A DNA stretch of 64,000 nt from Candidatus Aenigmatarchaeota archaeon. Its GTDB lineage: Archaea; Aenigmatarchaeota; Aenigmatarchaeia; QMZP01. Shown here in pieces: positions 10,068 to 43,879 of the stretch. A model generated the notes under the pieces. It did not search any database, was not told where the DNA came from, and saw nothing but the letters and a program-made list of their open reading frames with translations. A program made the position numbers and the translations under genes. The DNA is taken from contig JACPNN010000004.1 of assembly GCA_016185435.1 (NCBI GenBank), positions 73,635 through 137,634 of the forward strand. Reading direction: 5' to 3'. Position 1 is the first letter of the stretch. Each line of letters begins with the position of its first letter.

Positions 10068-10421
10068 TTATATCATCTCAAGATACTTCTTCTGCCTTAT
10101 GGCTACTGACTTCAGGCTGAGCAGGGAGATTTTTTTCCTTAAAGCCGCATCCTGGGTGCAGATCACATACCCTTTTTTGGCCATGCTGAGGAGGGCTGTG
10201 TCGACAGGCTGCCCTGATTCTATCAGGAAGCACTCTGAGCCGGCAAAATCAGCCGCCATCCTTGAGAATCTCCTTTGCCTGCTTCTTATCTTTTCAAGCT
10301 CGGCAAAGACAGAGGAAAGGGCAAACAGTTCCGGCCGGCCGAACTTGGAAAGCTCGCTTACGAGGCCTATCTTGAATGCGAAAATGTCAACAAGGAAGTT
10401 GGTGTCGAGGAGGAATTTCAT
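10068..10421 (-). CDS. vapC: PIN-domain nuclease (VapC-like toxin)
   Basis: 117 aa. N-terminal MKFLLDTNFLVD... acidic PIN signature. Confidence 0.7.
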   Translation of the reverse strand: MKFLLDTNFLVDIFAFKIGLVSELSKFGRPELFALSSVFAELEKIRSRQRRFSRMAADFAGSECFLIESGQPVDTALLSMAKKGYVICTQDAALRKKISLLSLKSVAIRQKKYLEMI

Positions 10422-10464
10422 ACATAGATTCTTTCCTCTTGATATATAAACCGATTCTGGAAAA

Positions 10465-10605
10465 CTATTTCTTCCTGGCCTTCCACTCCCTTGCGAACTC
10501 CCTCATCTTGGTGTCAATTTCGGTCTCGCTGCTGAAACTCTGGCCATATCTCTTCTTGAACTCGCCAAGAAACTGCTCTATTTCCTCGTCTCTGTCAGCA
10601 GGCAT
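10465..10605 (-). CDS. Small putative antitoxin partner of the downstream PIN gene
   Basis: Roughly 46-aa charged helical protein (MPADRDEEIEQFLGEFKKRYGQSF...) 43 nt upstream of the PIN gene. The call rests on position only. Confidence 0.3.
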   Translation of the reverse strand: MPADRDEEIEQFLGEFKKRYGQSFSSETEIDTKMREFAREWKARKK

Positions 10606-10693
10606 TGGAGGTCTATTAAAATATATTGCTGCGGTTGCTTTTAAAAGGAAGAGGGGGCCTTGCGGCAAACCCGTTATTTCTACAGCAAGAAAA

Positions 10694-11131
10694 CTAAATA
10701 ACCTCGATTGGCTCCTTCCTCCTCAAATCAGTTTTATCGAAATGCCCGTCAAAGCTTATTATGGTCTCTGCACCTGTTTTTTTGGCGGTAAGATACTGCA
10801 GGCTGTCATCGAAATCCAGCCCGATTTTCTGGGCGACAATGCTTATTGCCAGCTCTTCTCCTATAGTAGTGGTGTGGATTGTAAGGCCTATCGAATTATT
10901 AATATTCTTCAGAAAGGTTTCCAGAATAGCCAAGTTTTCCGAGAGTATTCCTTCGACTGCATGGACTGTGAATGAAGACACTATGCATTGCAGTTCACCT
11001 GAGGAAACCTTCTGCAAAAATTTTTCGCAATCTTCTGCTTTCTTTTGGTTCAGAAGGATCTCCAGAAAAATATTGGTGTCTATCAGATGCACGTCAGTCC
11101 ACCTTTCTCCATGCTTTATGCTGCAATTCAA
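10694..11131 (-). CDS. vapC: PIN-domain nuclease (VapC-like toxin)
   Basis: HLIDTNIFLEIL...D..Q PIN motifs. The true start is probably the GTG near 11092, abutting the upstream RHH gene. Confidence 0.75.
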   Translation of the reverse strand: MNCSIKHGERWTDVHLIDTNIFLEILLNQKKAEDCEKFLQKVSSGELQCIVSSFTVHAVEGILSENLAILETFLKNINNSIGLTIHTTTIGEELAISIVAQKIGLDFDDSLQYLTAKKTGAETIISFDGHFDKTDLRRKEPIEVI

Positions 11132-11559: not shown

Positions 11560-12828
11560 TTAGCTCTTGAAGAGAAGGAATTTCCATGCAGGGGTTATTT
11601 CTATATTATCTATGACTCTTTCATCTTCCATGTCCACAACCAGCGCTGTTCTTACTTTTTTTCCGAACTTCTTGATGAATTTTCTTATCTGCTTGATTTC
11701 CTTCCCGCCCTTTTTTATCTCGATCGCATCCACAGTGTCTTTGTCTGGGATTATGAAGTCAACCTCAAAGCCGTTCCTGTAAAAGAATTTTGTATCGAGT
11801 GCATTCAAAATGGCATTTTCCAGCATTGAAGGCAGGGCTTTTTCCATGTCCTGAATGAATGCATAAATCAGGTTGGGAGTGGCGAGATAGGCCTTTTTCA
11901 GCTTCCTCATGCTGGCAAGAGGGGATCCTCTGTAGTTGAAGACGAATCTGATAAGCAGAGAGAATTCCAGATACTCGAAATAGTTTGCAATGGTCCTGTG
12001 ATCCTTTCCTAGATTTCTGGATATCTCCCTGTAGTTGACAATCATTCCGGGATTGTTGCCTACCATGTAAACCAGATTCTTCAGCAATTCGATGTCTATA
12101 GACCCGAATTCCTCCGGAATGTCCTTGTATATTATCCTGTCAATCACATTGTTCAGCAGATATTTTCTCACGAAATCATCATCATCCTCATTCACCAGCT
12201 CGGGAAAAGTGCCGTGCCTGAGATACCTGTAAAAGAGCGGCAAAAGCTCCCTTTTCCATAGGCTGGGGTTTTCCTTTATTTTCTTGGCGTCCTTTCCTGT
12301 TATTTCAAGAAATTCCTGAAAATCCAGAGGCTTAAGAAGAAAATCGAGAATCCTGCCCGCAAGGCTTTCCTTGGCCCTTTTCCTGAAGGCGACAGATGCT
12401 GAGCCTGACAGGAAGAACTTGATGTTGGGGTAGAGGTCATAGAAGACCTTTATCTTGTTTTCCCAGTCTTTCACCTTCTGCACCTCGTCAAGGAAAATGT
12501 ACAGTCTGTCTTTTGTTTCGCCGAAGGTCTTGCCCAGAATGAGCTTCTGGTAGGAGTCAAGAACATCCTTTAGGTCAAAGGCCATCTCATCAAAGGAGAA
12601 ATATAATATATTCCTCGGGCTCTCGCTTTCCAGAAGCCTTTCTATCAGCTGGAACATCATGGTCGTCTTTCCGACTCTTCTGAGGCCCCATATCAGAACA
12701 GCCTGCCTCTTTCCAGCATGCTGCTCGATTTCGAAATAGAGCTTCCTTTTGTATCCCTTCAGCCATTCTTCCTTCACCCTGCCTGCCTTCCACCAGGGAT
12801 TGAAAACCTCGATGTCCTCGATTTTCAT
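11560..12828 (-). CDS. AAA+ ATPase (AAA_14 / DUF4143 family)
   Basis: 422 aa. Walker A GLRRVGKTTMM and Walker B LDEVQ, with a C-terminal DUF4143-like region. Confidence 0.8.
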   Translation of the reverse strand: MKIEDIEVFNPWWKAGRVKEEWLKGYKRKLYFEIEQHAGKRQAVLIWGLRRVGKTTMMFQLIERLLESESPRNILYFSFDEMAFDLKDVLDSYQKLILGKTFGETKDRLYIFLDEVQKVKDWENKIKVFYDLYPNIKFFLSGSASVAFRKRAKESLAGRILDFLLKPLDFQEFLEITGKDAKKIKENPSLWKRELLPLFYRYLRHGTFPELVNEDDDDFVRKYLLNNVIDRIIYKDIPEEFGSIDIELLKNLVYMVGNNPGMIVNYREISRNLGKDHRTIANYFEYLEFSLLIRFVFNYRGSPLASMRKLKKAYLATPNLIYAFIQDMEKALPSMLENAILNALDTKFFYRNGFEVDFIIPDKDTVDAIEIKKGGKEIKQIRKFIKKFGKKVRTALVVDMEDERVIDNIEITPAWKFLLFKS

Positions 12829-12983: not shown

Positions 12984-14372
12984 GTGATGGATTTGCCCGA
13001 AACAGAATCGTCTATACTGCTCAGAATGCTGGATAAGTATAAGCTTTTCGACATTGATATAGAGCTTGCCCAGTTCTTCCGTATCAGCAACAGGGGCGAC
13101 ATCGAGGGGCCATACAAAGGACTGCCTGAGCCTTATAGGATGGGCGGCACAGGTCGCAACATTCCCCTGGAGCATTTCAGGATAACAACAGTACGCTTCA
13201 GGAGTCGTGAAGGTGTCCCGTATATCTATTTCCGTACGCCCCGCATAGAGGCAGGCAGTGTCAAGATAGGCAAAATCAATGTGCTGGACAGGCCGCTGAA
13301 GATCAATGATCTTGTTTGGATCACACCTCAGGATGGCAGGGTAGGCCTGGTAATCGGCACAATAATCAGGATAATAGACACGGAGAGAACGAAAAAACCG
13401 CCCAAAGAGGATGAAAATGAGGAGCTTGAGAAGATCAAAGAGGAGCTTGAAGAAAACCGCAGGCTGTATGCCCTGCCTTCAGGAGAAAAGCCCGCCCTGA
13501 AGCCCTACGCCCCCGGCCCCCTGCCTGCAAATATCCCTAGGAGAGGAAGGAAGGAGAGGGGATTGTGGGAGGACAACAGACCCATACCTATGGGGCCGCT
13601 AAGGCCGCCGGCATTGCCGCCGGGAAGGGAAGGGAGACCTGAACCAAGGCCTGTAATTCTGGAGGAAGGGATTCGGGAGCCGACAATAGTGAACATTTAT
13701 GCCCTTCCGCTCGACGAAAGAGGCAGGCCAGGCCTTCATGGAGTGCAGCAGCTTCGTGCACGCATCCTGACATCAGAACCGAGAAGGTTGGAGCTTATAG
13801 ACCAGCTTCTTCCTTTAAGAAATCTTGAGCTTGATAACCCGCCTGCCCGCATACTGATCGAGGCCGAATACGATCATCCGCAGGCCGGAAGGCTTGTGGC
13901 GCACAGGGAGTTTGATCTGCATCCGGGGGTAAATAATCTGATCCTCCAGTTCAGAATTCCTTTTGGCGCTGGCGGGATCGGAGGGCCGGGAAGGCCAGAA
14001 GGGCCAGTTGGAGGAGGGCCTGCGAGGCCCGAAGGCGTCGGGGGCGGTGAAGGGGAAGGATGGTGGTTTGAAGGCCATGTTGTTGACCAGAACAATAATC
14101 CGATACCCAATGCAAGGATTACAATAGCTGGCACTGCCCATTCTGTTGCTACAGGAGCAAATGGCAGATACAGAATTCCCGCTGCAGGAGGGCTTCCGCA
14201 GGGAAACTATACTCTATTTTGCCAAGTCCCGCCAGAACAAACCCGTGGTGCTGCACAGACACATGCAGCAGATGTGAATATTGCCGAAGGCGGGCAGGCT
14301 GAAATAAGGATATTTCCAGTTGAAGTAGAGCACCGCCAGAATAGAGGCGGAGAACCAAGGAGGGAAGGATAG
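12984..14372 (+). CDS. Pro-rich protein with C-terminal carboxypeptidase-regulatory-like (CarboxypepD_reg) domain
   Basis: 462 aa with no signal peptide. Pro/Gly-rich linker, then GEGEGWWFEGHVVDQNNNPIPNARITIAGTAHSVATGANGRYRIP. Ends at TAG 14370-14372, in frame with the next ORF. Confidence 0.55.
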   Translation: MMDLPETESSILLRMLDKYKLFDIDIELAQFFRISNRGDIEGPYKGLPEPYRMGGTGRNIPLEHFRITTVRFRSREGVPYIYFRTPRIEAGSVKIGKINVLDRPLKINDLVWITPQDGRVGLVIGTIIRIIDTERTKKPPKEDENEELEKIKEELEENRRLYALPSGEKPALKPYAPGPLPANIPRRGRKERGLWEDNRPIPMGPLRPPALPPGREGRPEPRPVILEEGIREPTIVNIYALPLDERGRPGLHGVQQLRARILTSEPRRLELIDQLLPLRNLELDNPPARILIEAEYDHPQAGRLVAHREFDLHPGVNNLILQFRIPFGAGGIGGPGRPEGPVGGGPARPEGVGGGEGEGWWFEGHVVDQNNNPIPNARITIAGTAHSVATGANGRYRIPAAGGLPQGNYTLFCQVPPEQTRGAAQTHAADVNIAEGGQAEIRIFPVEVEHRQNRGGEPRREG

Positions 14373-14375
14373 ACT

Positions 14376-17300
14376 ATGCCTGCAATAATTATCAACTTCA
14401 TTATAAACATAAATGTTCCGCCGCCCCCGCCTCCTCCTCCTGGAGGGGGTGAAGGATGGATTGAAGGTCTTGTAAGAGATGAAGGCGGCAGAGCCATTGA
14501 TAATGCAAATGTTATTAATCATACTACTGGAGAACACACCCAGACCAATCATTTAGGCTACTACAGGCTTCCGCAGGATCCGCGAGAAGGTCTGACTCCC
14601 GGCCATCATCTTGTCGCATGCGGAGCAACAGGCTTTGAAGATCAGGAAAGGGAAATTGAGGTGAGACCTGGACGGGCTGCAAACGGCAATTTCACTCTTC
14701 ACAGAAGAACTGGCCGTACTCCGGCTGGCCAAGGTGTTGTCTATGGTCAAGTCTGGATAAAGAATGCGCAGGGAAAGGATGAGCCTTTCATACCCCAAAC
14801 TGAAAGAGTGCCTGACTGGCAGCAAAGGAACAGAATATATGCATATCCCTTAACTCATACCGTCCTTGGCTGGTTTGGGAGGATTCTCCCTGATACCCGT
14901 CTCAATTGGCCAGAAGCTATATCTGAAGGTCATATTGATGAGCATGGAAGATATTCTTTAAGCCTGTTTCCTGGAACCTACCAGCTCGTGTGCAATATCA
15001 CAGATCCACGCCGGGTACAATGGCCCGTAGCTGACTCAAGGAGAGATGCAGCCGGCAATATAATACAGCCACTGCCTCACCACGCTGATCCGTCTTCAGT
15101 GTATGAACCCAAGACAGCCATGGCAACAGTTCGGGCGTATCAAAGAACCAAGCATGACTTCCATTTCTACCCGCAAGGAGGTTCACGGATTGCCAGAGGC
15201 GCAAATACAGCAAGAAACTGGATCGAGCAGAGGTGGGGGGCCGGGATTACAGGGAACATTCACATCATCGCGCTTCTTGCGATAGGCGTCCTCATCTCCA
15301 ACTACTTCCATAACACCAACTTCCTTCTCGGCTTCTGGTCGCTGGTCGCGTACTTCCTGATACCTGAGCCCATACAGGGCAGGCTACAGCAGGAGCTTGA
15401 AGAAGGCCACATGCAGCTGCAGTTTAGGTGGCGGGACTTGGTAATGAGAGGAGAGAACAGAGAGCAGTTCAACAACGCGTGGAGATGGCTGCTTGGCAAC
15501 AACAATTCCCAGTTCACCGCGCTGAGGAGCTTTGCCAAGGTAATGGCCATCTGGTTCTTCAGCCAGGGACTACTGCAGAGCACCTTCGCCTTTTCGAACA
15601 TAATGCTGCTCATAGTGGTCTTTGCAGGATACTATTCCTTTGCCATAGAGTATGACACAAGGAGATCGGGCCAGGTGATAGAGTCATTCTTCAGGTTCGC
15701 CTTCCTAGGCGTGTACCTGATCCCGTGGGTTGTAGTGGCGAGGGTGTTCGATTCTAATGTCCTTGGGCTAATAGCATTTGCGTTTTTGGCCGTACCTCCC
15801 TTTTCGAGAAGGGACCAGCAGCATGAATCCTCAATAGGGTCAGGACTGGAACCGGCGATGAAGGTTGCCTTCCTTATCTGCATGATCATAGCGCTTATGT
15901 ACAGCGGGGCGATGGCCACATTCTTCCCCGAATCCCAGATGTTCCAGACGCAGACAGGTTGGGGGCTTAAGGGAGGCTTGGCAGACACGTTCTTCTTCTT
16001 CTGGTTCCTGACAACGCTGGTCGGGTTCTTTTCACCGCCACAGGAGAGGCCCGCAGCAGGATTCATCATGCTTTTCGCAGCGACTGTCATATATGCGCTT
16101 GGGCCCGGAACCCAGGAGGTGGGGCAGGGGCTGCTCGGGCCTTATTTCCCTGCATTTTACAAAGGCATGATAGGAACAATCAAGCCCGTGACCCAAGCGT
16201 TCTCTGGCTTCGGGAGCGCATTCGGTCCTGCCCTCTGTCTGCTCACCAATCCTGTGGCATGTGCACAGAACATAACTGACGGCAGATGGAGTCAAGATTC
16301 AACTACTGGGATTGCAGGGGCATACGGCGTCGAGCTGGAGGACTTCAGGATGGATGATCAGATATTCACAGAGCAGCCTTTTGCCATCACGCTGAAGCTG
16401 AACAATCTGGGCTCGTTCGATGCGAGGCATGTCGATGTCAGCTTTGCGGCCGGGGAGGATGCGGCAACTATAGAGGAGAGGGAGAGCATGTGGATAAGGC
16501 CGTTCAGATCAAGGCAGGATACAGACAACAAAAGGAAGCGGATGAACCTAGCCGAACTTGGTTTCGGTGACAGGCCTGATGACCCTCAGGGGAAGGAGGG
16601 CCTTGACTGCGTTGAAGACAGCACAGGCGTACCGGTTCTTTGCAGGAGCACCGACCGCATTGATGTCATGGAGAAGAAGGACATACAGCCCATAAGGTTC
16701 GAGAGCAATGATGAAGGGATAAAATGCAGGGCCGTCACCAAATATGAGCTGTATGAAAAGTATCTGCCCTTTGCGGCCAAGGTCTCATATGATTATGGCA
16801 TCTCATCGAGCCTTGATGTAGAGTTCCTCAGCGATGCCGAATGGCGAAGAAAGTCGCAGGCAGAGGAGCTTACTTTCCAACAGAAGATACCCTCCACCCT
16901 TTCGAATTCCCCTGTCATGCTGAATATAGACACTACACCGCAGCCGATAAGGGAGGATGTCTCATTCCCAATCAGGATGCAGCTGAAGACCGGGCCCAGA
17001 GGAGGGACGATAAACAGGACATACATGATAAATGCGGAAATACCGACGGAGCTGTGGAAGGCGAAGAGGTACTGCACACCGTCTCCCTCCAGCGAGACAG
17101 AGATTGCCCAGAAGGGCGTGACACTGGTCAGATGGGAGGAGAGCAGGATACTGCCTTCAAGGACAATCGCATGCCAGTTCAACGGATACAAGTTCCCGAA
17201 GGGCGAAAAGGAGAAAATAGGCGTGCAGCCGACAAAGAGTTTCCTGATAAAGACCAATGCAAGCTACAGGTTCGAGAAGGCGGAGCAGACCATAGGCAAG

Positions 17301-17750
17301 CTGGAATGGGGCGGGGTGGCGTGCTGCTATCCGGCAGGGCAGTACAAAGGGCAGGACGGAGACAAATTCTGCCAGTCCCTTGGATATCCTGCATGCGATG
17401 CAACGACTCATCAATGCAAGGCGGAGGCGCAGACGTGGGGGCCTGCCGATCATTGCAAGAACCAGATAGCGTCAAACCCGAAGGAGAAGTGCAACCTTGG
17501 TGCTGGAGGATGCTCATCGGATGCGGAGTGCTGCTCTGACCCTGCTGATTGCCAGGGCTCTGGAGGGCTGTTTGATGTCGATAGCGATGGAAATCCTGAT
17601 TCTCTGGAATGCAGGAGAAAAATAGCCAATGGCGTCTGCTGCCCTGCAAAGACAAGCGACAATGACTGCGCTGCAGCCCACCAGATGTTCACGGAGAACA
17701 AGAGCCCGGCAGAGGTAAGTGACTTCCTGAGAAAGAATACGGGTCCCTGA
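14376..17750 (+). CDS. Giant (1124 aa) polytopic membrane protein with N-terminal poly-Pro + CarboxypepD_reg-like domain and Cys-rich C-terminal domain
   Basis: PPPPPPPPGGGEGWIEGLVRDEGGRAIDNANVINHTTGEHTQTNHLGYYRLP, then at least 8 predicted TM helices (about aa 290-620), a large hydrophilic domain, and a C-terminus with more than 20 Cys. Confidence 0.6.
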   Translation: MPAIIINFIININVPPPPPPPPGGGEGWIEGLVRDEGGRAIDNANVINHTTGEHTQTNHLGYYRLPQDPREGLTPGHHLVACGATGFEDQEREIEVRPGRAANGNFTLHRRTGRTPAGQGVVYGQVWIKNAQGKDEPFIPQTERVPDWQQRNRIYAYPLTHTVLGWFGRILPDTRLNWPEAISEGHIDEHGRYSLSLFPGTYQLVCNITDPRRVQWPVADSRRDAAGNIIQPLPHHADPSSVYEPKTAMATVRAYQRTKHDFHFYPQGGSRIARGANTARNWIEQRWGAGITGNIHIIALLAIGVLISNYFHNTNFLLGFWSLVAYFLIPEPIQGRLQQELEEGHMQLQFRWRDLVMRGENREQFNNAWRWLLGNNNSQFTALRSFAKVMAIWFFSQGLLQSTFAFSNIMLLIVVFAGYYSFAIEYDTRRSGQVIESFFRFAFLGVYLIPWVVVARVFDSNVLGLIAFAFLAVPPFSRRDQQHESSIGSGLEPAMKVAFLICMIIALMYSGAMATFFPESQMFQTQTGWGLKGGLADTFFFFWFLTTLVGFFSPPQERPAAGFIMLFAATVIYALGPGTQEVGQGLLGPYFPAFYKGMIGTIKPVTQAFSGFGSAFGPALCLLTNPVACAQNITDGRWSQDSTTGIAGAYGVELEDFRMDDQIFTEQPFAITLKLNNLGSFDARHVDVSFAAGEDAATIEERESMWIRPFRSRQDTDNKRKRMNLAELGFGDRPDDPQGKEGLDCVEDSTGVPVLCRSTDRIDVMEKKDIQPIRFESNDEGIKCRAVTKYELYEKYLPFAAKVSYDYGISSSLDVEFLSDAEWRRKSQAEELTFQQKIPSTLSNSPVMLNIDTTPQPIREDVSFPIRMQLKTGPRGGTINRTYMINAEIPTELWKAKRYCTPSPSSETEIAQKGVTLVRWEESRILPSRTIACQFNGYKFPKGEKEKIGVQPTKSFLIKTNASYRFEKAEQTIGKLEWGGVACCYPAGQYKGQDGDKFCQSLGYPACDATTHQCKAEAQTWGPADHCKNQIASNPKEKCNLGAGGCSSDAECCSDPADCQGSGGLFDVDSDGNPDSLECRRKIANGVCCPAKTSDNDCAAAHQMFTENKSPAEVSDFLRKNTGP

Positions 17751-17753
17751 TGC

Positions 17754-18290
17754 CTATGGCAGAGGAGGGCAGTTGCTCTTCGGACGCCTTGCAGCATGCG
17801 TGTCCTCAAAATAGGATGTGATGCCATATTTGCCGTCCACCTTGGTGACGCCTACACCATATCTGCCGTCTTTGACGCCGAGCTGATTGTCTATCTGTAT
17901 GTGCCTCATTTGCTTTAAGCCATTTTCCATAGAGTTAAGTTTTTCCAATACAAAATCGTCTTCGCCTATATAGATTGTGCCTCTGTACTCCCTTTCTCCA
18001 CGGTCTTTCTTGCATCTGTCTGGCTCGATTGTGTTCTCGAAGCCTTCCCAGTACAGGGCGGTTTTCCCAATCGGTCTGCCTGTGTTGGTATCATAGACTT
18101 CCCTCGGGTCGAGTCTTGTGATTGTTATGGGAGTGTTATAGGGGATGAGGGGCGCTCTTGGCCTTGAGCCGAAAGAACCGAAAATGCCTGCCAGGCCAAT
18201 GGCTGTGATAGCGGTGGCGGCGATTATTCCTGTTTTGTATTTTTGGCCAAATGTCTTTGTGCTGTTCCAAGCTGCCTTTAAATTAACCAT
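17754..18290 (-). CDS. Membrane-anchored hypothetical protein
   Basis: 178 aa. N-terminal TM helix IIAATAITAIGLAGIFGSFG. Convergent with the giant membrane protein gene. Confidence 0.4.
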   Translation of the reverse strand: MVNLKAAWNSTKTFGQKYKTGIIAATAITAIGLAGIFGSFGSRPRAPLIPYNTPITITRLDPREVYDTNTGRPIGKTALYWEGFENTIEPDRCKKDRGEREYRGTIYIGEDDFVLEKLNSMENGLKQMRHIQIDNQLGVKDGRYGVGVTKVDGKYGITSYFEDTHAARRPKSNCPPLP

Positions 18291-18336: not shown

Positions 18337-19259
18337 TGTGCTATCCCGAATTAGTTAGAGCCTTCCTGTCACTATAAAATACCTCGGCAGGGTATTTATA
18401 GCCTATAGCGCCGCATGGCCTCCTATAGTTCCAGTATCTAACGAACTTACCGTGGTCGCCTTTGGTGACCCATATCTCCGCCTCATAGCAGCCATGGAAA
18501 TTCTCAATCTTGCCGCAGGTAGTCGGTCTCTTTACAGTGCTGTGGATAACCTGCACTCCCTGCTGTTCGCAGAACAGCTCGAAATCTGTCAGCTGTCCGC
18601 TCAGGTTGTTCCTGAACTGGCTGCCGTTGTCTGTCAGTATCTGCTCCGGAGTCCCGTATCTCCTGAAGGCTTGCGCTACAAGCCTTATTGCATTCTCCAT
18701 CGTGGCTTCATCGAACTTCTTTGACGCCGCGACAAACCTCGAATGGTCGTCATAAAACGTCAGCATGGGATTGCCGATCAGCACATCCTTCCAGTCTCCC
18801 TGCCACAGGGACATGCTGTGCTGCCTTTCCCATCGAGTCCTGCCCCATGTCCTTCTTTCCCTGGTTATGGGGCTGTTGAGGTTCTTTTCCTTGATGAGCT
18901 GGTATATGCGGTTATGCGGTATGTGCACCCCATGGTGCACATCGAGATGTCCTTCTATCTTGGTCGGCCCCCAGCGATAGGCTTTCCTCCATATCTGGAT
19001 CCTCCTTGAATCGTTGGCGCCTATGGTGTATCTGGCCTTCGGTCCAGGCTTCCTCTTGTTGACAAGGGAGGCGTACTCGCCTTTGTTTATCCGCAACTTC
19101 CAGAGAAAGTAAGTGCTTTCCGGTATATTCAGCTCTCTCCGTATGTCTATGTCGCTCCAGCCTTCTCTTAGCTTGAGCAGCATCATTGCTATCTTGTTGT
19201 CCCTGTCCATCGAATCACCTCATCCTGTTATAGGTGACTCCAACTAATAGGGATAGCTC
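18337..19259. mobile_element. Insertion sequence (about 923 bp) with a single DDE/rve transposase gene, imperfect terminal IRs and a 16-bp flanking direct repeat
   Basis: Left end TGTGCTATCCCGAATTAGTTAGAG (18337..18360). The right end is its inverted complement GCTATCCCTATTAGTTGGAG (19239..19258). The 16-mer ATATTTAAATGCTTTT occurs directly on both flanks (18321..18336 and 19260..19275). Confidence 0.75.
18341..19210 (-). CDS. DDE transposase, integrase-core (rve) type
   Basis: 289 aa. N-terminal HTH, then an rve-like catalytic core (WQGDW...D...LTDNGSQF...E). Confidence 0.8.
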   Translation of the reverse strand: MDRDNKIAMMLLKLREGWSDIDIRRELNIPESTYFLWKLRINKGEYASLVNKRKPGPKARYTIGANDSRRIQIWRKAYRWGPTKIEGHLDVHHGVHIPHNRIYQLIKEKNLNSPITRERRTWGRTRWERQHSMSLWQGDWKDVLIGNPMLTFYDDHSRFVAASKKFDEATMENAIRLVAQAFRRYGTPEQILTDNGSQFRNNLSGQLTDFELFCEQQGVQVIHSTVKRPTTCGKIENFHGCYEAEIWVTKGDHGKFVRYWNYRRPCGAIGYKYPAEVFYSDRKALTNSG

Positions 19260-20375: not shown

Positions 20376-21437
20376 TCAAGTCCCCACCACAATCCTTATC
20401 AGGTCCCTCAGCCCGGGCGCAAGGCCCAGTATCAGAATCACCAGCTTCAGGAAGCCCTTGAAATCCCTGCTCTCATCGCTCCTTTCTATATACCAGAGTA
20501 TAGGCAGGACAACAACTGCCTTCAGAAGGAAGAATGACTCAGGCCCAAAAATGCCAGTCACGAACTCCACCAGCGGATGCTGCTCCCCATATCCGAGGTA
20601 CTTGAGCGCGATGAATGTGGCCGAAGCGTCGAGAAAATGGGCCGACATGATGAGCTGGATGTCTTTCTTCAGCAGTATACCGAATGCCTCCTGAAGCCTG
20701 TTCCTGTTATTTTTTTTGAAATAATGGCTCAAAGAATGCAGAAAAGCATACGTAAAAACAGAGGCCAATATAGTGAGGCCTGTTACGTGAAAGAATCTTT
20801 CAGGATATCTGTAAGGCAGTACGCTCAGGCTGATAACTGCTGCAATAGCTCCAATGGAGAGCATGGTTTTCCAGTAAGGAATCCTTATGTTTCTTTTTCC
20901 AAGAGCCTTCTCAGCGGCTATTGAGAAAAGGAAGATGAACAGGGCCAGGAAGAACGTCAGAAGGTAGCTTCCGGGTGTGGCGAAGAAAGGCACAATCCAG
21001 CTCAAAGGCAGCAATATGAAGTCAGGAAGGGGTGAAGAAGAAAGATGCTCGAATGCCTTCTGCTGCAGCAGACCGATATTGAAGCCTGGCTCTGAGACTG
21101 AAAGGAACCTTGAAAGCTGGCCTGTTTGCTCAGCTGCCTTGTAGGCCAGGCCATAAGCGACGTCCCTTAGAACTCTTGTTGAAGATGCAAGCACGATGAA
21201 GGGTATGATAGCCCAGAAAAAATGTTTGTCTATTTTTATTTCAAACTTCCTGACAAGCCTGTAGACGCCATATACGGAAACAATAAGAATAGCTGCATAT
21301 GTGACTGAATTGACAGGATTGAAATCCCCGCCTCTAAGGATAGGCTCGATGAAATTCTCCTCAAGAAAACCCATGGTGGTTATTGGCTCTGCTGCTTTAA
21401 TAATTTTTGGGTCGATATACAAGATGGCATTTGACAA
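20376..21437 (-). CDS. Polytopic integral membrane protein (at least 8 TM), unknown function
   Basis: 353 aa, mostly hydrophobic helices. The start may be the internal Met at 21373 (MGFLEENF...). Confidence 0.5.
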   Translation of the reverse strand: MSNAILYIDPKIIKAAEPITTMGFLEENFIEPILRGGDFNPVNSVTYAAILIVSVYGVYRLVRKFEIKIDKHFFWAIIPFIVLASSTRVLRDVAYGLAYKAAEQTGQLSRFLSVSEPGFNIGLLQQKAFEHLSSSPLPDFILLPLSWIVPFFATPGSYLLTFFLALFIFLFSIAAEKALGKRNIRIPYWKTMLSIGAIAAVISLSVLPYRYPERFFHVTGLTILASVFTYAFLHSLSHYFKKNNRNRLQEAFGILLKKDIQLIMSAHFLDASATFIALKYLGYGEQHPLVEFVTGIFGPESFFLLKAVVVLPILWYIERSDESRDFKGFLKLVILILGLAPGLRDLIRIVVGT

Positions 21438-23314: not shown

Positions 23315-23608
23315 ATGAAGGCATACGGAGAAATCTTGAGAATTTTGAGGAAACAAAAGCCATTGCTCGGAAGCAGATACAGTGTCAGTTATATAGGCGT
23401 CTTTGGTTCGTATGCAAGAGGAACGCAAAAAAAGGGCAGCGATATTGATATCCTCGTGGATTTTAGCGGGCCAATAGGCCTCTTTGCATTTATGCAACTT
23501 GAAAGCTATTTGAGCAACATCCTGGGCATTAAGGCCGATTTGGTAATGAAGACCGCACTAAAACCGCATATAGGAAAGCTCATAATCAAAGAGGTAGTTC
23601 CAGCATGA
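23315..23608 (+). CDS. mntA: Minimal nucleotidyltransferase (MNT) antitoxin-like protein
   Basis: GSYARGTQKKGSDIDILVDF Pol-beta-type NTase motif. 97 aa. The stop overlaps the start of the HEPN gene. Confidence 0.8.
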   Translation: MKAYGEILRILRKQKPLLGSRYSVSYIGVFGSYARGTQKKGSDIDILVDFSGPIGLFAFMQLESYLSNILGIKADLVMKTALKPHIGKLIIKEVVPA

Positions 23609-23949
23609 AAAGGGAATTCCTGGATTATGTTGAAGATGTCATAAAATCCATCACTATGATAGAGGAATTCGTCTCAGGTTTGTCTTATGAGAACTTCAAG
23701 AAGGACGAGAAAACTGCATATGCTGTTGTGCGTGCCCTTGAAATAATAGGTGAATCTGTGAAAAACATGCCTGTGGCGATCAGGCAGCATTATCCTGAAA
23801 TCCAGTGGAAAGAAATGTCTGCAATGCGGGACAAGCTTATTCATGCATATTTTGGAGTTGATCTTTCGGTGGTATGGAAGACCATCAAAGAAGAGCTTCC
23901 TCCCCTTAAACCTTTGTTCGAGAAGATAAAGCGAGATTGCCAAAAATAG
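23605..23949 (+). CDS. hepT: HEPN-domain (DUF86/HepT-like) toxin-like protein
   Basis: 114 aa. R-x4-6-H-like motif (RDKLIHAYFGVD). Translationally coupled to the MNT gene. Confidence 0.75.
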   Translation: MKREFLDYVEDVIKSITMIEEFVSGLSYENFKKDEKTAYAVVRALEIIGESVKNMPVAIRQHYPEIQWKEMSAMRDKLIHAYFGVDLSVVWKTIKEELPPLKPLFEKIKRDCQK

Positions 23950-23986
23950 AAGAGGCTGCATTTCAGGAAATAGAAGTAAAAGACAT

Positions 23987-24535
23987 ATGATCATAACCAT
24001 CTCTGGCAAGCCCGGCTCAGGCAAATCGACTGTGGCCAGGCTTCTCGCAAAAAGGCTTGGATACAGGCATTACTCTGTGGGGGATTTCATGAGGCAGATA
24101 GCGAAGGAGAAGAAGATATCCCTCCTTGAGCTTTCGAATATTGCTGAACAGGGGATTGAAACAGACAGTAGGCTTGATGATATGCAGATCAAGCTGAAGG
24201 GGCAGGATAATTTTGTCCTCGACAGCAGATTGGGATGGCATTTCCTCCCCAACTCCCTGAAGATATTTCTCGAAGTGGATGATAAAACAGCGGCGAAAAG
24301 GATATACAGGGACATGAGAAAGGAGGAGAAGGAAAACATGACACTGGAAGACACGGAAAAATCAATCAGAAGGAGGATAAAATCGGAAAAAGAGAGGTAC
24401 AAGGAATACTATGGCCTAAACCCGTATGACAAGAGGCATTATGATCTTGTCATGGACACAAACAGACAGGCGCCTGAAAAAGTTGTTCGAATTATATTGA
24501 ATTTTCTGGAAGGGCAGCTACCGCACCATCCCTAA
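23987..24535 (+). CDS. cmk: Cytidylate kinase, archaeal type
   Basis: P-loop ISGKPGSGKST, 182 aa, and overall similarity to archaeal Cmk / adenylate-kinase-like NMP kinases. Confidence 0.75.
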   Translation: MIITISGKPGSGKSTVARLLAKRLGYRHYSVGDFMRQIAKEKKISLLELSNIAEQGIETDSRLDDMQIKLKGQDNFVLDSRLGWHFLPNSLKIFLEVDDKTAAKRIYRDMRKEEKENMTLEDTEKSIRRRIKSEKERYKEYYGLNPYDKRHYDLVMDTNRQAPEKVVRIILNFLEGQLPHHP

Positions 24536-42274: not shown

Positions 42275-43879
42275 ATGAAGCTGTCCCTGCCGATAGCAGC
42301 TTTGATTGTCTTTTCTGCGGCAAGCACAGTAGGCCTTGGAGAGCTGCCTTTTTGTTCTGACACTGACAGCGGAATAGCAGAAACTTCCAGGGGCGTTTGC
42401 TCCTCCACATCCTTAAATTTCAGCGACAGATGCTCTGGACATTTCCTCCTCGAAGGCTATTGCAAAAAAGACAGCTCATGCGGCTTCAAAGCGATAGACT
42501 GCAACAGGTTCTGCAAAGGCCAGAATTCCGGACAGGCTGGCATATGCGATAATGGGGCATGTGCTTGCTCTGCTTCTCCGCTGCCGGCATGCTCTGACAG
42601 CGACAATGGCATGGAGCCTTTCTCATCCGGCATATGCTCGGTGACAAGAAACGGGAAAACAGAAAACTTTGGGGACAGGTGCATATCGCAAAATTTCCTC
42701 CTCGAAAGGGGGTGTTCCAGGGGCAGTGATTTTTGCCAGGCAAGATTTCTCAACTGCGATTCTGAGTGCAAAAAGGCTGACAGGAATTCCCTTGGGCTTT
42801 GCACTTCGAATGCATGCTCATGCGCTCCTTCACAAAAAGGGCCCAAGATTGTGATAAGCGAGGTGTACTATGACCCTCCGGATGAGACGGATGAGTTTGT
42901 GGAGCTGTTTGTTGAAAATGCGAGCATGCTGTTGAATGTTTCAGGCTGGAAAATAACTGATTTTGACAATAACAACATCACATTGCCCTTCATTTCGGGC
43001 CTTGGAAAATCTGATTACATAGTGATATACACAGGCAACGGGACAAATGATACGGACGCAAGTGACGGAAAAGCGGCCATATACAGGAGAAGGGGTTCAG
43101 GCATCTGGACCAATACTGGGGATGAAGTCGGCCTGTATGATCGGGAAGGAAAAATACATGACTTCATGAGATATGAGGAAGGCAATGGCGATCCTGTTCT
43201 CGCGAACTGGCCTTCCAGCGACAACGGGCCTGCAGCGCCTGAAGGCGAAAGCGTGCAGCTGAATGGGACGGACATGGACTCAGGGGTGAACTGGATATCT
43301 GCATTGCCAAGTCCTGGAGGGCCGATTATTTTCAAAACTCTGTATGATGATTTTTCTGGTAACAGCCTGAACCTGACAAAATGGAATGAATCGACAGACT
43401 TCGCTTTTACTGATATGCATGGAATAAATACTACAGAAGGAGCCTATCATAACTCTCAAATTGAGACTGTATCGCCTGGCACCACAACATTTCTCACAAT
43501 GAATAGGCTCATCCAGGCCACCGAAAGGCTTGAATTTGATATCAAATATGTGTCTGGGGAGGGGAACAACATATTCTACTATTATTTCAATGGGATAGCG
43601 CCACAACACCTCTTTAACTGCAGCAACTGTGGAACAATTGGATTTTGGAATACAAATGGATCTATAGGTACTGATTTTGGAATATACCATTTCAAAATCG
43701 AATTTTATCAAACAGGTGTATATTGGCAAATTAGAAAACCAGATAGCACGCTTTTCATTGCAAATTTCACTAATAGCCCAATCCTGATTGCACCCTATAG
43801 TGTGAAGTTTATTACAGCAACTGGACATAACGGCCTTGTTCACTTCGATTACGACAACTTCACCATCGTGAGGCTATAG
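42275..43879 (+). CDS. Secreted Cys-rich protein with lamin-tail domain (LTD)
   Basis: Signal-peptide-like N-terminus, two Cys-rich repeat modules, then the LTD signature KIVISEVYYDPPDETDEFVELFVEN...GWKITDF. Confidence 0.6.
   Translation: MKLSLPIAALIVFSAASTVGLGELPFCSDTDSGIAETSRGVCSSTSLNFSDRCSGHFLLEGYCKKDSSCGFKAIDCNRFCKGQNSGQAGICDNGACACSASPLPACSDSDNGMEPFSSGICSVTRNGKTENFGDRCISQNFLLERGCSRGSDFCQARFLNCDSECKKADRNSLGLCTSNACSCAPSQKGPKIVISEVYYDPPDETDEFVELFVENASMLLNVSGWKITDFDNNNITLPFISGLGKSDYIVIYTGNGTNDTDASDGKAAIYRRRGSGIWTNTGDEVGLYDREGKIHDFMRYEEGNGDPVLANWPSSDNGPAAPEGESVQLNGTDMDSGVNWISALPSPGGPIIFKTLYDDFSGNSLNLTKWNESTDFAFTDMHGINTTEGAYHNSQIETVSPGTTTFLTMNRLIQATERLEFDIKYVSGEGNNIFYYYFNGIAPQHLFNCSNCGTIGFWNTNGSIGTDFGIYHFKIEFYQTGVYWQIRKPDSTLFIANFTNSPILIAPYSVKFITATGHNGLVHFDYDNFTIVRL

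Follow-up and report, generated by a model that had tools for sequence, protein, structure and literature searches.

The ORF1-ORF2 junction

We analysed a 64-kb stretch of DNA (the window; all coordinates are positions within it) from a tiny symbiotic archaeon of the Aenigmarchaeota (DPANN). On its forward strand lie two adjacent open reading frames, ORF1 and ORF2 (Table 1), which share a reading frame and are separated only by the TAG stop codon of ORF1 and a single ACT codon, after which ORF2 starts at ATG 14376. Neither holds any further stop or frameshift in the list of open reading frames. A preliminary description of the sequence had given this same layout and had left several readings side by side: two tandem paralogous genes, one long gene with an amber interruption (programmed read-through or pseudogenisation), or a sequencing error. 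Our results make it very likely that ORF1 and ORF2 are separately translated genes of one operon, derived from an old fission of a single gene for an uncharacterised membrane protein. Below, homologous proteins carry labels beginning with P and the loci that carry homologues carry labels beginning with L.

The preliminary description had called the two products giant and Pro-rich. Proline is abundant in the ORF1 protein (11.1%) and less so in that of ORF2 (6.4%), and ORF1, at 461 amino acids (aa), is not giant. The module that the two were said to share is real: both contain a bona fide CarboxypepD_reg domain, with scores above the gathering threshold of Pfam PF13620 (32.3 bits). Their common "GGGEG(EG)W" motif corresponds to the end of a Gly/Pro linker together with the first strand of this domain (W-x-E-G-x-V-x-D). 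In ORF1 the domain is preceded by a Gly/Pro linker ending in GGGEGEGWW, and in ORF2 by MPAIIINFIININV, a poly-Pro run and GGGEGW. The two domains were only 33% identical over 55 aa, which argues for a shared common domain type and against a recent duplication. CarboxypepD_reg is ubiquitous, covers only 7-17% of each protein and is uninformative on function.

Table 1. Coordinates of ORF1, ORF2, their parts and two downstream genes in the window.
Feature	Position	Strand	Description
ORF1	12987..14372	+	461 aa; ATG 12987, alternative GTG start 12984; from the open reading frame list
Second domain of ORF1 (dom2, aa 226-335)	13662..13991	+	predicted beta-rich; best-conserved part of ORF1; strands in a low-confidence AlphaFold2 model
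CarboxypepD_reg domain 1 (ORF1 aa 363-441)	14070..14306	+	Pfam PF13620, E 1.4e-11, 45 bits
Shine-Dalgarno-like AGGAGGGAAGGA	14358..14369	+	7-18 nucleotides upstream of the ORF2 ATG, inside the last ORF1 codons
ORF1 stop TAG	14370..14372	+	followed by a 3-nucleotide spacer, ACT, 14373-14375; same in two independent assemblies
ORF2	14376..17750	+	1124-aa polytopic membrane protein, core family member; stop TGA 17748-17750
CarboxypepD_reg domain 2 (ORF2 aa 29-108)	14460..14699	+	Pfam PF13620, E 1.5e-12, 48.1 bits
Membrane core (ORF2 aa 289-624)	15240..16247	+	predicted nine transmembrane helices, N-terminus in, C-terminus out; AlphaFold2, hydrophobicity and loop charges
Extracellular beta-sandwich region (ORF2 aa ~640-980)	16293..17315	+	predicted; family-wide; AlphaFold2 strands with pLDDT mostly >90, consensus motifs
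Cys-rich C-terminal cap (ORF2 aa 983-1124)	17322..17747	+	15 Cys; conserved CC/C columns
Small convergent gene	17754..18290	-	178 aa; hydrophobic stretch, possible N-terminal membrane anchor; no Cys lipobox
AliA_AliB homologue	20376..21437	-	Pfam PF01889 match; 36.7% identical to the L005 copy

The junction was recovered unchanged in independent data. Over 20.8 kb, a contig of the SRR12113425 assembly (seen in 4 samples) matched the window exactly, as did a contig assembled independently from SRR12113390 over 8.9 kb; both include the junction and show 0 mismatches. Two Logan assemblies and NCBI agree on a length of 461 aa for ORF1, and ORF2 too is an NCBI protein. The agreement of the two assembled contigs excludes a one-off assembly error. 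An artefactual TAG from sequencing or assembly, a general possibility in any metagenome-assembled genome (MAG), is therefore exceedingly improbable, and the genes are split in an orthologous locus as well.

The MAG of an uncultured archaeon carries this orthologous locus, L003, on contig CAYJTA010000044.1. L003 encodes P0003 (345..1904, 519 aa), the only full-length ORF1 homologue found in a word-indexed protein search, which ends in TAG and is 38% identical to ORF1; identity reaches 59% over 183 aa spanning dom2, the linker and the start of the CarboxypepD_reg domain. After a spacer of 50 nucleotides (nt), and in a different frame, follows an ORF2 orthologue of 1193 aa that is 44% identical to ORF2 over its full length. 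Its ATG stands directly on MPPPGNGW, aligned with ORF2 residue 20, and the first 19 residues of ORF2 have no counterpart there. The position of the in-frame TAG is not conserved between the two loci. A frameshift fusion in L003 was considered and rejected: a shift could join the frames nowhere but in a stretch of 10 nt (1892-1901), and this stretch lacks a slippery heptamer. The comparison of fused with split orthologues that the preliminary description had proposed thus points to tandem genes, since L003 carries two genes, the second with its own ATG and behind a spacer of different length. P0003 also has an extra Ig-like insert at residues ~220-285 (PPYRWGV…GVLSGTP…) that is missing from ORF1 and whose motif resembles the He_PIG / dystroglycan-type cadherin-like domain. 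A scan of genome contigs returned the L003 contig again and nothing further, and scans of metagenome contigs with the ORF1 and the ORF2 alignments gave no match.

A recent nonsense mutation in a formerly single gene, leaving a pseudogene, could be suspected from the lone in-frame stop between two homologous modules and from the insertion sequence (IS) integrase and toxin-antitoxin genes nearby, which suggest a plastic region. The split, however, is at the same position in L003, where the proteins are only 38-44% identical to those of the window, and the halves have stayed intact in each lineage (461 versus 519 aa with 38-59% identity for the first, 1124 versus 1193 aa with 44% identity for the second). 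Conservation of both halves across more than 50% protein divergence, with no stop or frameshift inside either, makes pseudogenisation very unlikely.

The preliminary description had also stated that TAG serves as a real stop elsewhere in the window, and this proved correct. The 65 long ORFs of the window end in TAG in 22 cases (34%), in TGA in 26 and in TAA in 17. TAG terminates the genes for fibrillarin, aldehyde dehydrogenase, ornithine/aspartate carbamoyltransferase (OTCase) and saccharopine dehydrogenase, and the Pfam models of these four enzymes finish within a few residues of the stop. TAG is avoided by archaea that decode it as pyrrolysine; here, contrary to what would be expected of a pyrrolysine or otherwise TAG-recoded gene, it is not rare. 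A scan of the 64-kb window detected no tRNA and no Rfam family, and no unusual RNA structure was found around the junction (fold z = -0.53).

These results bear on two readings in which the TAG would be passed by the ribosome. In the first, ORF1 and ORF2 form a single 1588-aa gene whose TAG is decoded, by programmed read-through or as pyrrolysine. The TAG is the sole interruption between two in-frame ORFs and fused relatives exist, and the arrangement resembles the methylamine methyltransferase genes of methanogens in having an in-frame TAG inside a potential long archaeal ORF. It differs from them in that TAG is an abundant stop in the window, that its position is not conserved and that a start codon and a Shine-Dalgarno (SD)-like motif belong to the gene after it; no pyl genes or tRNA were seen within the window, in contrast to pyrrolysine systems. 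Programmed read-through is no better matched, as ORF2 has its own ATG with AGGAGG upstream, the frame is not conserved in L003, where the genes are separate, and the junction lacks structure. We consider decoding of the TAG highly improbable.

In the second reading the two genes are separate and the TAG is leaky, so that minor read-through would yield a 1588-aa fusion beside the separate proteins and recreate the ancestral chain. One sense codon between TAG and ATG in a shared frame, single-chain relatives with the same domain order, and the plausible inter-domain linker that the C-terminal tail of ORF1 and the first 27 residues of ORF2 would make are compatible with this. The frame relation is nevertheless not kept in L003, whose 10-nt joinable stretch holds no slippery site, no stimulatory RNA structure is present at the junction, and TAG stops a third of the window genes. 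Nor is the shared frame itself informative: 3 of 15 closely spaced same-strand pairs in the window are in frame, against a chance expectation of 1 in 3. We take its occurrence here to be a coincidence. Minor leakage is accordingly unlikely, and nothing in the data calls for it. The TAG of ORF1 is an ordinary stop. The identical assemblies, the 22 TAG stops among 65 and the two out-of-frame genes of L003 together leave the recoding readings unsupported, a negative result for stop-codon recoding in a DPANN archaeon that keeps a false case out of the record.

Split and single-chain forms of the gene

The origin of the pair was indicated by its single-chain relatives. ORF1 aa 263-383, a stretch that runs from the end of dom2 through the Pro/Gly linker into the CarboxypepD_reg domain, aligned with residues 174-291 of P0080, a relative of 1347 aa in one chain whose transmembrane core, matching ORF2, starts at about residue 473. 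A hidden Markov model of dom2 matched the N-terminal regions of P0080, P0077 (6.7e-15), P0102 (4.6e-8) and P0091 (4.9e-7). At the loci of P0080, P0005, P0006 and P0013, which represent the closest other relatives, the gene is undivided and nothing like ORF1 lies upstream; in L011 and L012, one long ORF continues through the Gly/Pro linker. ORF1 and ORF2 thus match consecutive parts of single-chain relatives in the same order, which identifies them as a fission pair. The proposal of two tandem paralogous genes therefore stands as far as tandem genes are concerned, and the L003 layout supports it; it goes too far on paralogy, since the proteins share one common domain at 33% identity and are otherwise consecutive parts of one chain.

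We suggest that an ancestral single-chain gene was cut between two CarboxypepD_reg modules in the lineage of the window and L003, leaving ORF1 as a soluble cytoplasmic front part and ORF2 as the remainder. ORF1 is predicted to be soluble, with no hydrophobic or transmembrane segment and no signal peptide, and probably represents the family's N-terminal module, cytoplasmic and here detached. Its product and that of ORF2 would re-associate on the cytoplasmic face of the membrane, and the whole complex may act as a cell-envelope or host-contact device. Reassembly of the two proteins in the cytoplasm is probable, and the presence of fused and split forms in one family predicts an interaction between ORF1 and the N-terminus of ORF2. 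In locus L013 (450..1310), 3.7 kb upstream of the family member P0018, a separate gene encodes a soluble protein of 286 aa in which a Zn ribbon at the N-terminus is combined with two CarboxypepD_reg domains. This gene may represent a second, independent detachment of the N-terminal module, and its soluble product fits the cytoplasmic picture of that module.

The genomes of DPANN archaea are known for split genes (PMC6349945). As in the described cases of reverse gyrase, alanyl-tRNA synthetase and Dph1/2 (PMC6349945), two ORFs here stand for one chain and both halves are kept. The present pair differs in three respects: the halves are adjacent, in ancestral order and 3 nt apart, whereas the classical split genes of Nanoarchaeum are often dispersed; the product, an uncharacterised membrane protein, is no information-processing enzyme; and the gene is divided between two domains of one type. 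With fused and split forms side by side, ORF1/ORF2 provides a clean example of adjacent gene fission in DPANN.

How ORF2 is translated after the split can be approached from the junction. Its own ATG would be used with the help of the SD-like motif, of termination-reinitiation coupling, or of both. SD-like motifs are rare upstream of the other window genes. The last 60 nt of ORF1 hold no A/T-rich promoter-like element, which makes co-transcription of ORF1 and ORF2 likely. Termination-reinitiation needs overlapping genes or a very short distance between them, and is enriched among subunits of heteromeric complexes; in the model organisms that were studied, coupling disappears at a distance of ~20 nt (PMC10666635). 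ORF1 and ORF2 resemble such pairs in strand, in their 3-nt distance from stop to start and in products that are expected to act together. An overlap of 4 or 1 nt is typical of coupled pairs, and a +3 spacer is less frequent; 4-nt overlaps and spacers of 2-6 nt are common between same-strand genes of the window. The stop-to-start spacing is not kept (3 nt in the window versus 50 nt in L003), and because the longer spacer should lose coupling, coupling is probably not a conserved property of the pair. Within the L003 spacer, some 20 nt ahead of the ATG, there is a TATA-like TTTCTATATT, which may tentatively be read as a promoter for the ORF2 orthologue.

Several points weigh against the fission reading or parts of it. 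The searches yielded a single orthologous split locus, L003, on a contig of 8.2 kb with low coverage, so that a constant split is a statement on two loci. The GGAGG core lies 12 nt from the ORF2 ATG, beyond the classical optimum, and independent initiation at ATG 14376 is a step that we infer from the sequence around it. The physical association of the two proteins is likewise our inference, and the AlphaFold2 model of ORF1, built from a 2-sequence alignment, reached a mean confidence (pLDDT) of only 36. Finally, CarboxypepD_reg and Ig-like domains are usually extracellular; their placement in the cytoplasm is unusual, and we base it on the absence of a signal peptide together with the charge-bias reasoning given below.

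The ORF2 family and its membrane core

The relatives of ORF2 were collected by an exhaustive phmmer search with ORF2 as the query against 1.84 billion cluster representatives, of which 219 matched at E <= 1e-3 and 121 at E <= 1e-30. Among the 8000 candidates to which the word-indexed search was limited, probably mostly chosen by Gly/Pro low-complexity words, the fused 1588-aa sequence matched ORF2 alone, and the 50-sequence family alignment matched ORF2 and its L003 orthologue. Wherever the source names of family members give an organism, it is Aenigmarchaeota/Aenigmatarchaeota. The members are labelled "hypothetical", "ABC transporter permease", "MFS transporter", "transglycosylase SLT domain-containing" and, in one case, "NAD-dependent dihydropyrimidine dehydrogenase PreA subunit". 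The part conserved throughout corresponds to ORF2 aa ~280-1110, that is, the membrane core and the C-terminal domain. The N-terminal regions differ in length (~100 to 830 aa) and content; in many, CxxC...CxxC Zn-ribbon motifs stand at the start, and signal peptides are absent from all. In or beside the Cys-rich C-terminal region, P0013 and P0019 carry an SLT domain and P0080 a glucosaminidase domain. The family plan is thus an N-domain (often Zn ribbons or helical), a Gly/Pro linker, one or more beta-sandwiches of the CarboxypepD_reg type, a core of nine transmembrane (TM) helices, and an ectodomain with a Cys-rich cap.

The N-terminal architectures given in databases are unreliable for this family, because gene callers truncated two of its members. 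P0007 (L011, 2549..6220) was called with 930 aa and its ORF is open for 1223 aa, that is, for 293 more codons upstream; the called start lies just after a Gly/Pro linker of ~80 aa, which is preceded in the extension by a helical N-domain. P0008 (L012, 160..3465) was called with 1000 aa, is open for 1101 aa (101 more codons) and has its called start inside the first beta-sandwich.

The preliminary description had credited the second protein with at least 8 TM helices and a C-terminal domain with more than 20 Cys, and both statements agree with our results. Kyte-Doolittle analysis gave 8 hydrophobic segments between aa 289 and 578, the AlphaFold2 model showed ~10 helices between aa 289 and 624, and 22 of the 25 Cys residues of ORF2 come after aa 620. 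This model, the structure prediction that had been suggested for the polytopic core, was built from a 50-member alignment and reached a pLDDT mostly >90 over aa 280-1124; its variable N-terminus was not confident. Residues of the core that are invariant in the 50-sequence alignment include R440, P475, P559, G562 and G578. With loop limits taken from the helices of the model, and lysine plus arginine residues counted over the family alignment, the counts of successive loops alternated (6.1 / 0.0 / 5.3 / 0.0 / 1.5 / 0.1 / 3.3 / 0.3 / 1.1 / 0.1).

This alternation of positive charge across the family points to nine TM helices, with the N-terminus of ORF2 inside the cell and its C-terminus outside. 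The predicted orientation is further supported by the many N-terminal Zn ribbons, the absence of signal peptides and the Cys-rich or hydrolase-bearing C-termini. The N-terminal 285 aa of ORF2, CarboxypepD_reg domain included, are then probably cytoplasmic, and so probably is ORF1, which has neither a TM segment nor a signal peptide. Here the domain would differ from its usual extracytoplasmic occurrence.

Outside the CarboxypepD_reg domains, ORF1 and ORF2 had no match in Pfam, NCBIfam, PADLOC, PHROG or among PDB sequences, and the family that the preliminary description did not recognise is indeed absent from these collections. Structural searches found no relative of the membrane core among solved structures, and the ORF2 model had no match in the BFVD viral structure library. 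Matches of the ectodomain were generic and weak (integrin legs, the soluble domain of Pyrococcus furiosus STT3, pilins and transglutaminase barrels), with TM-scores <=0.22. AglB/STT3 resembles ORF2 in its gross layout, in that an N-terminal, polytopic membrane part leads into a C-terminal domain that is large, beta-rich and extracellular, and Foldseek returned the P. furiosus soluble domain at E ~1e-4 with TM-scores of ~0.1-0.2. STT3 has 13 TM helices, unlike the nine predicted for ORF2, which also has a long cytoplasmic N-terminus. An STT3 identity was rejected, as ORF2 matched neither the STT3 membrane domain nor any Pfam STT3 model. A transporter identity, as in the ABC permease and MFS names of P0007 and P0039, was rejected in the same way: ORF2 has no transporter match in Pfam or NCBIfam and no structural match to a transporter, and these labels seem to be artefacts of annotation. 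A defence-system or phage origin was dismissed because ORF1 and ORF2 match nothing in PADLOC or PHROG, and horizontal transfer because their GC content is inside the range of the window.

The recoding case having turned out ordinary, the novelty of the locus is confined to this uncharacterised, moderately interesting family and its core without a solved structural relative. The family is sizeable, consists of large membrane proteins predicted to be exposed at the surface, and has so far been named only in Aenigmarchaeota. It is a reasonable candidate for a function in host contact or in the cell envelope. The core is without a Pfam model or a solved relative, some members carry hydrolase domains of the peptidoglycan type, and genes of the AliA/AliB type recur close by. 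A part in the poorly understood contact between DPANN archaea and their hosts is plausible. A more specific hypothesis, which we put forward tentatively and hold to be doubtful as a whole, is that the family forms an Aenigmarchaeota-specific envelope machine built on a new 9-TM fold. The cytoplasmic N-terminal region (here ORF1) would control or energise a stalk, the Cys-rich or hydrolase tip would contact or open the host wall, and the machine would be functionally tied to the small anchored protein and the AliA/AliB homologue encoded downstream.

Genomic neighbourhood

A small convergent gene without a Pfam match lies downstream of every family gene examined. BLASTP detected no similarity among the three of these genes that were compared. 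The copies of the window and of L003 each have a single hydrophobic stretch; the one that follows P0080 (L005, 12061..12804, - strand) has a lipobox (…LTGLTGC…) and adjoins an AliA_AliB gene.

An AliA_AliB gene follows in six of nine distinct loci (the window, L005/L006, L007, L008, L009/L010 and L011). L012, whose last downstream gene is at the contig end, was left outside this count, and AliA_AliB was not seen downstream in L003 and L014, nor in the ~3.4 kb downstream in L013. AliA and AliB are archaeal enzymes of lipoprotein lipidation (PMC12462473). The order of family gene, small gene and AliA_AliB may be a conserved synteny with functional meaning. The gene next after AliA_AliB in L007 is CarS-like (PF01864, CDP-archaeol synthase family). 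In the window this syntenic block is interrupted after the small convergent gene by an inserted IS-type integrase gene (rve, HTH_32; 18341..19210, - strand).

An ATPase gene of the AAA_14/DUF4143 type adjoins the ORF1/ORF2-type locus in three genomes (window 11560..12828, - strand; L003 6526..7833; L013 1300..2568), in a different relative position in each. For the window copy, which is 30-36% identical to the other two, PADLOC gave a match to PDC-S01 (E 1.2e-65), a candidate gene of phage defence. Instead of a functional link, a hotspot of defence genes or mobile elements may underlie this adjacency. On both sides of the region, at 10068..11131 and 23315..24024 of the window, there are genes of the toxin-antitoxin type (PIN domain; Polbeta/NTP_transf_2 with HepT-like), and genes of this type likewise flank L011 and L013.

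In the P0013/P0011 subclade, a conserved protein of 372-380 aa with an N-terminal hydrophobic stretch is encoded directly upstream of the family gene and after a Pelota gene (L009 4829..5947 and L014 3744..4886). The two copies are 42% identical to each other and unrelated to ORF1. Farther along the window, a gene at 42275..43879 on the + strand encodes a protein of 534 aa that contains a Lamin Tail Domain (PF00932, E 4.4e-15).

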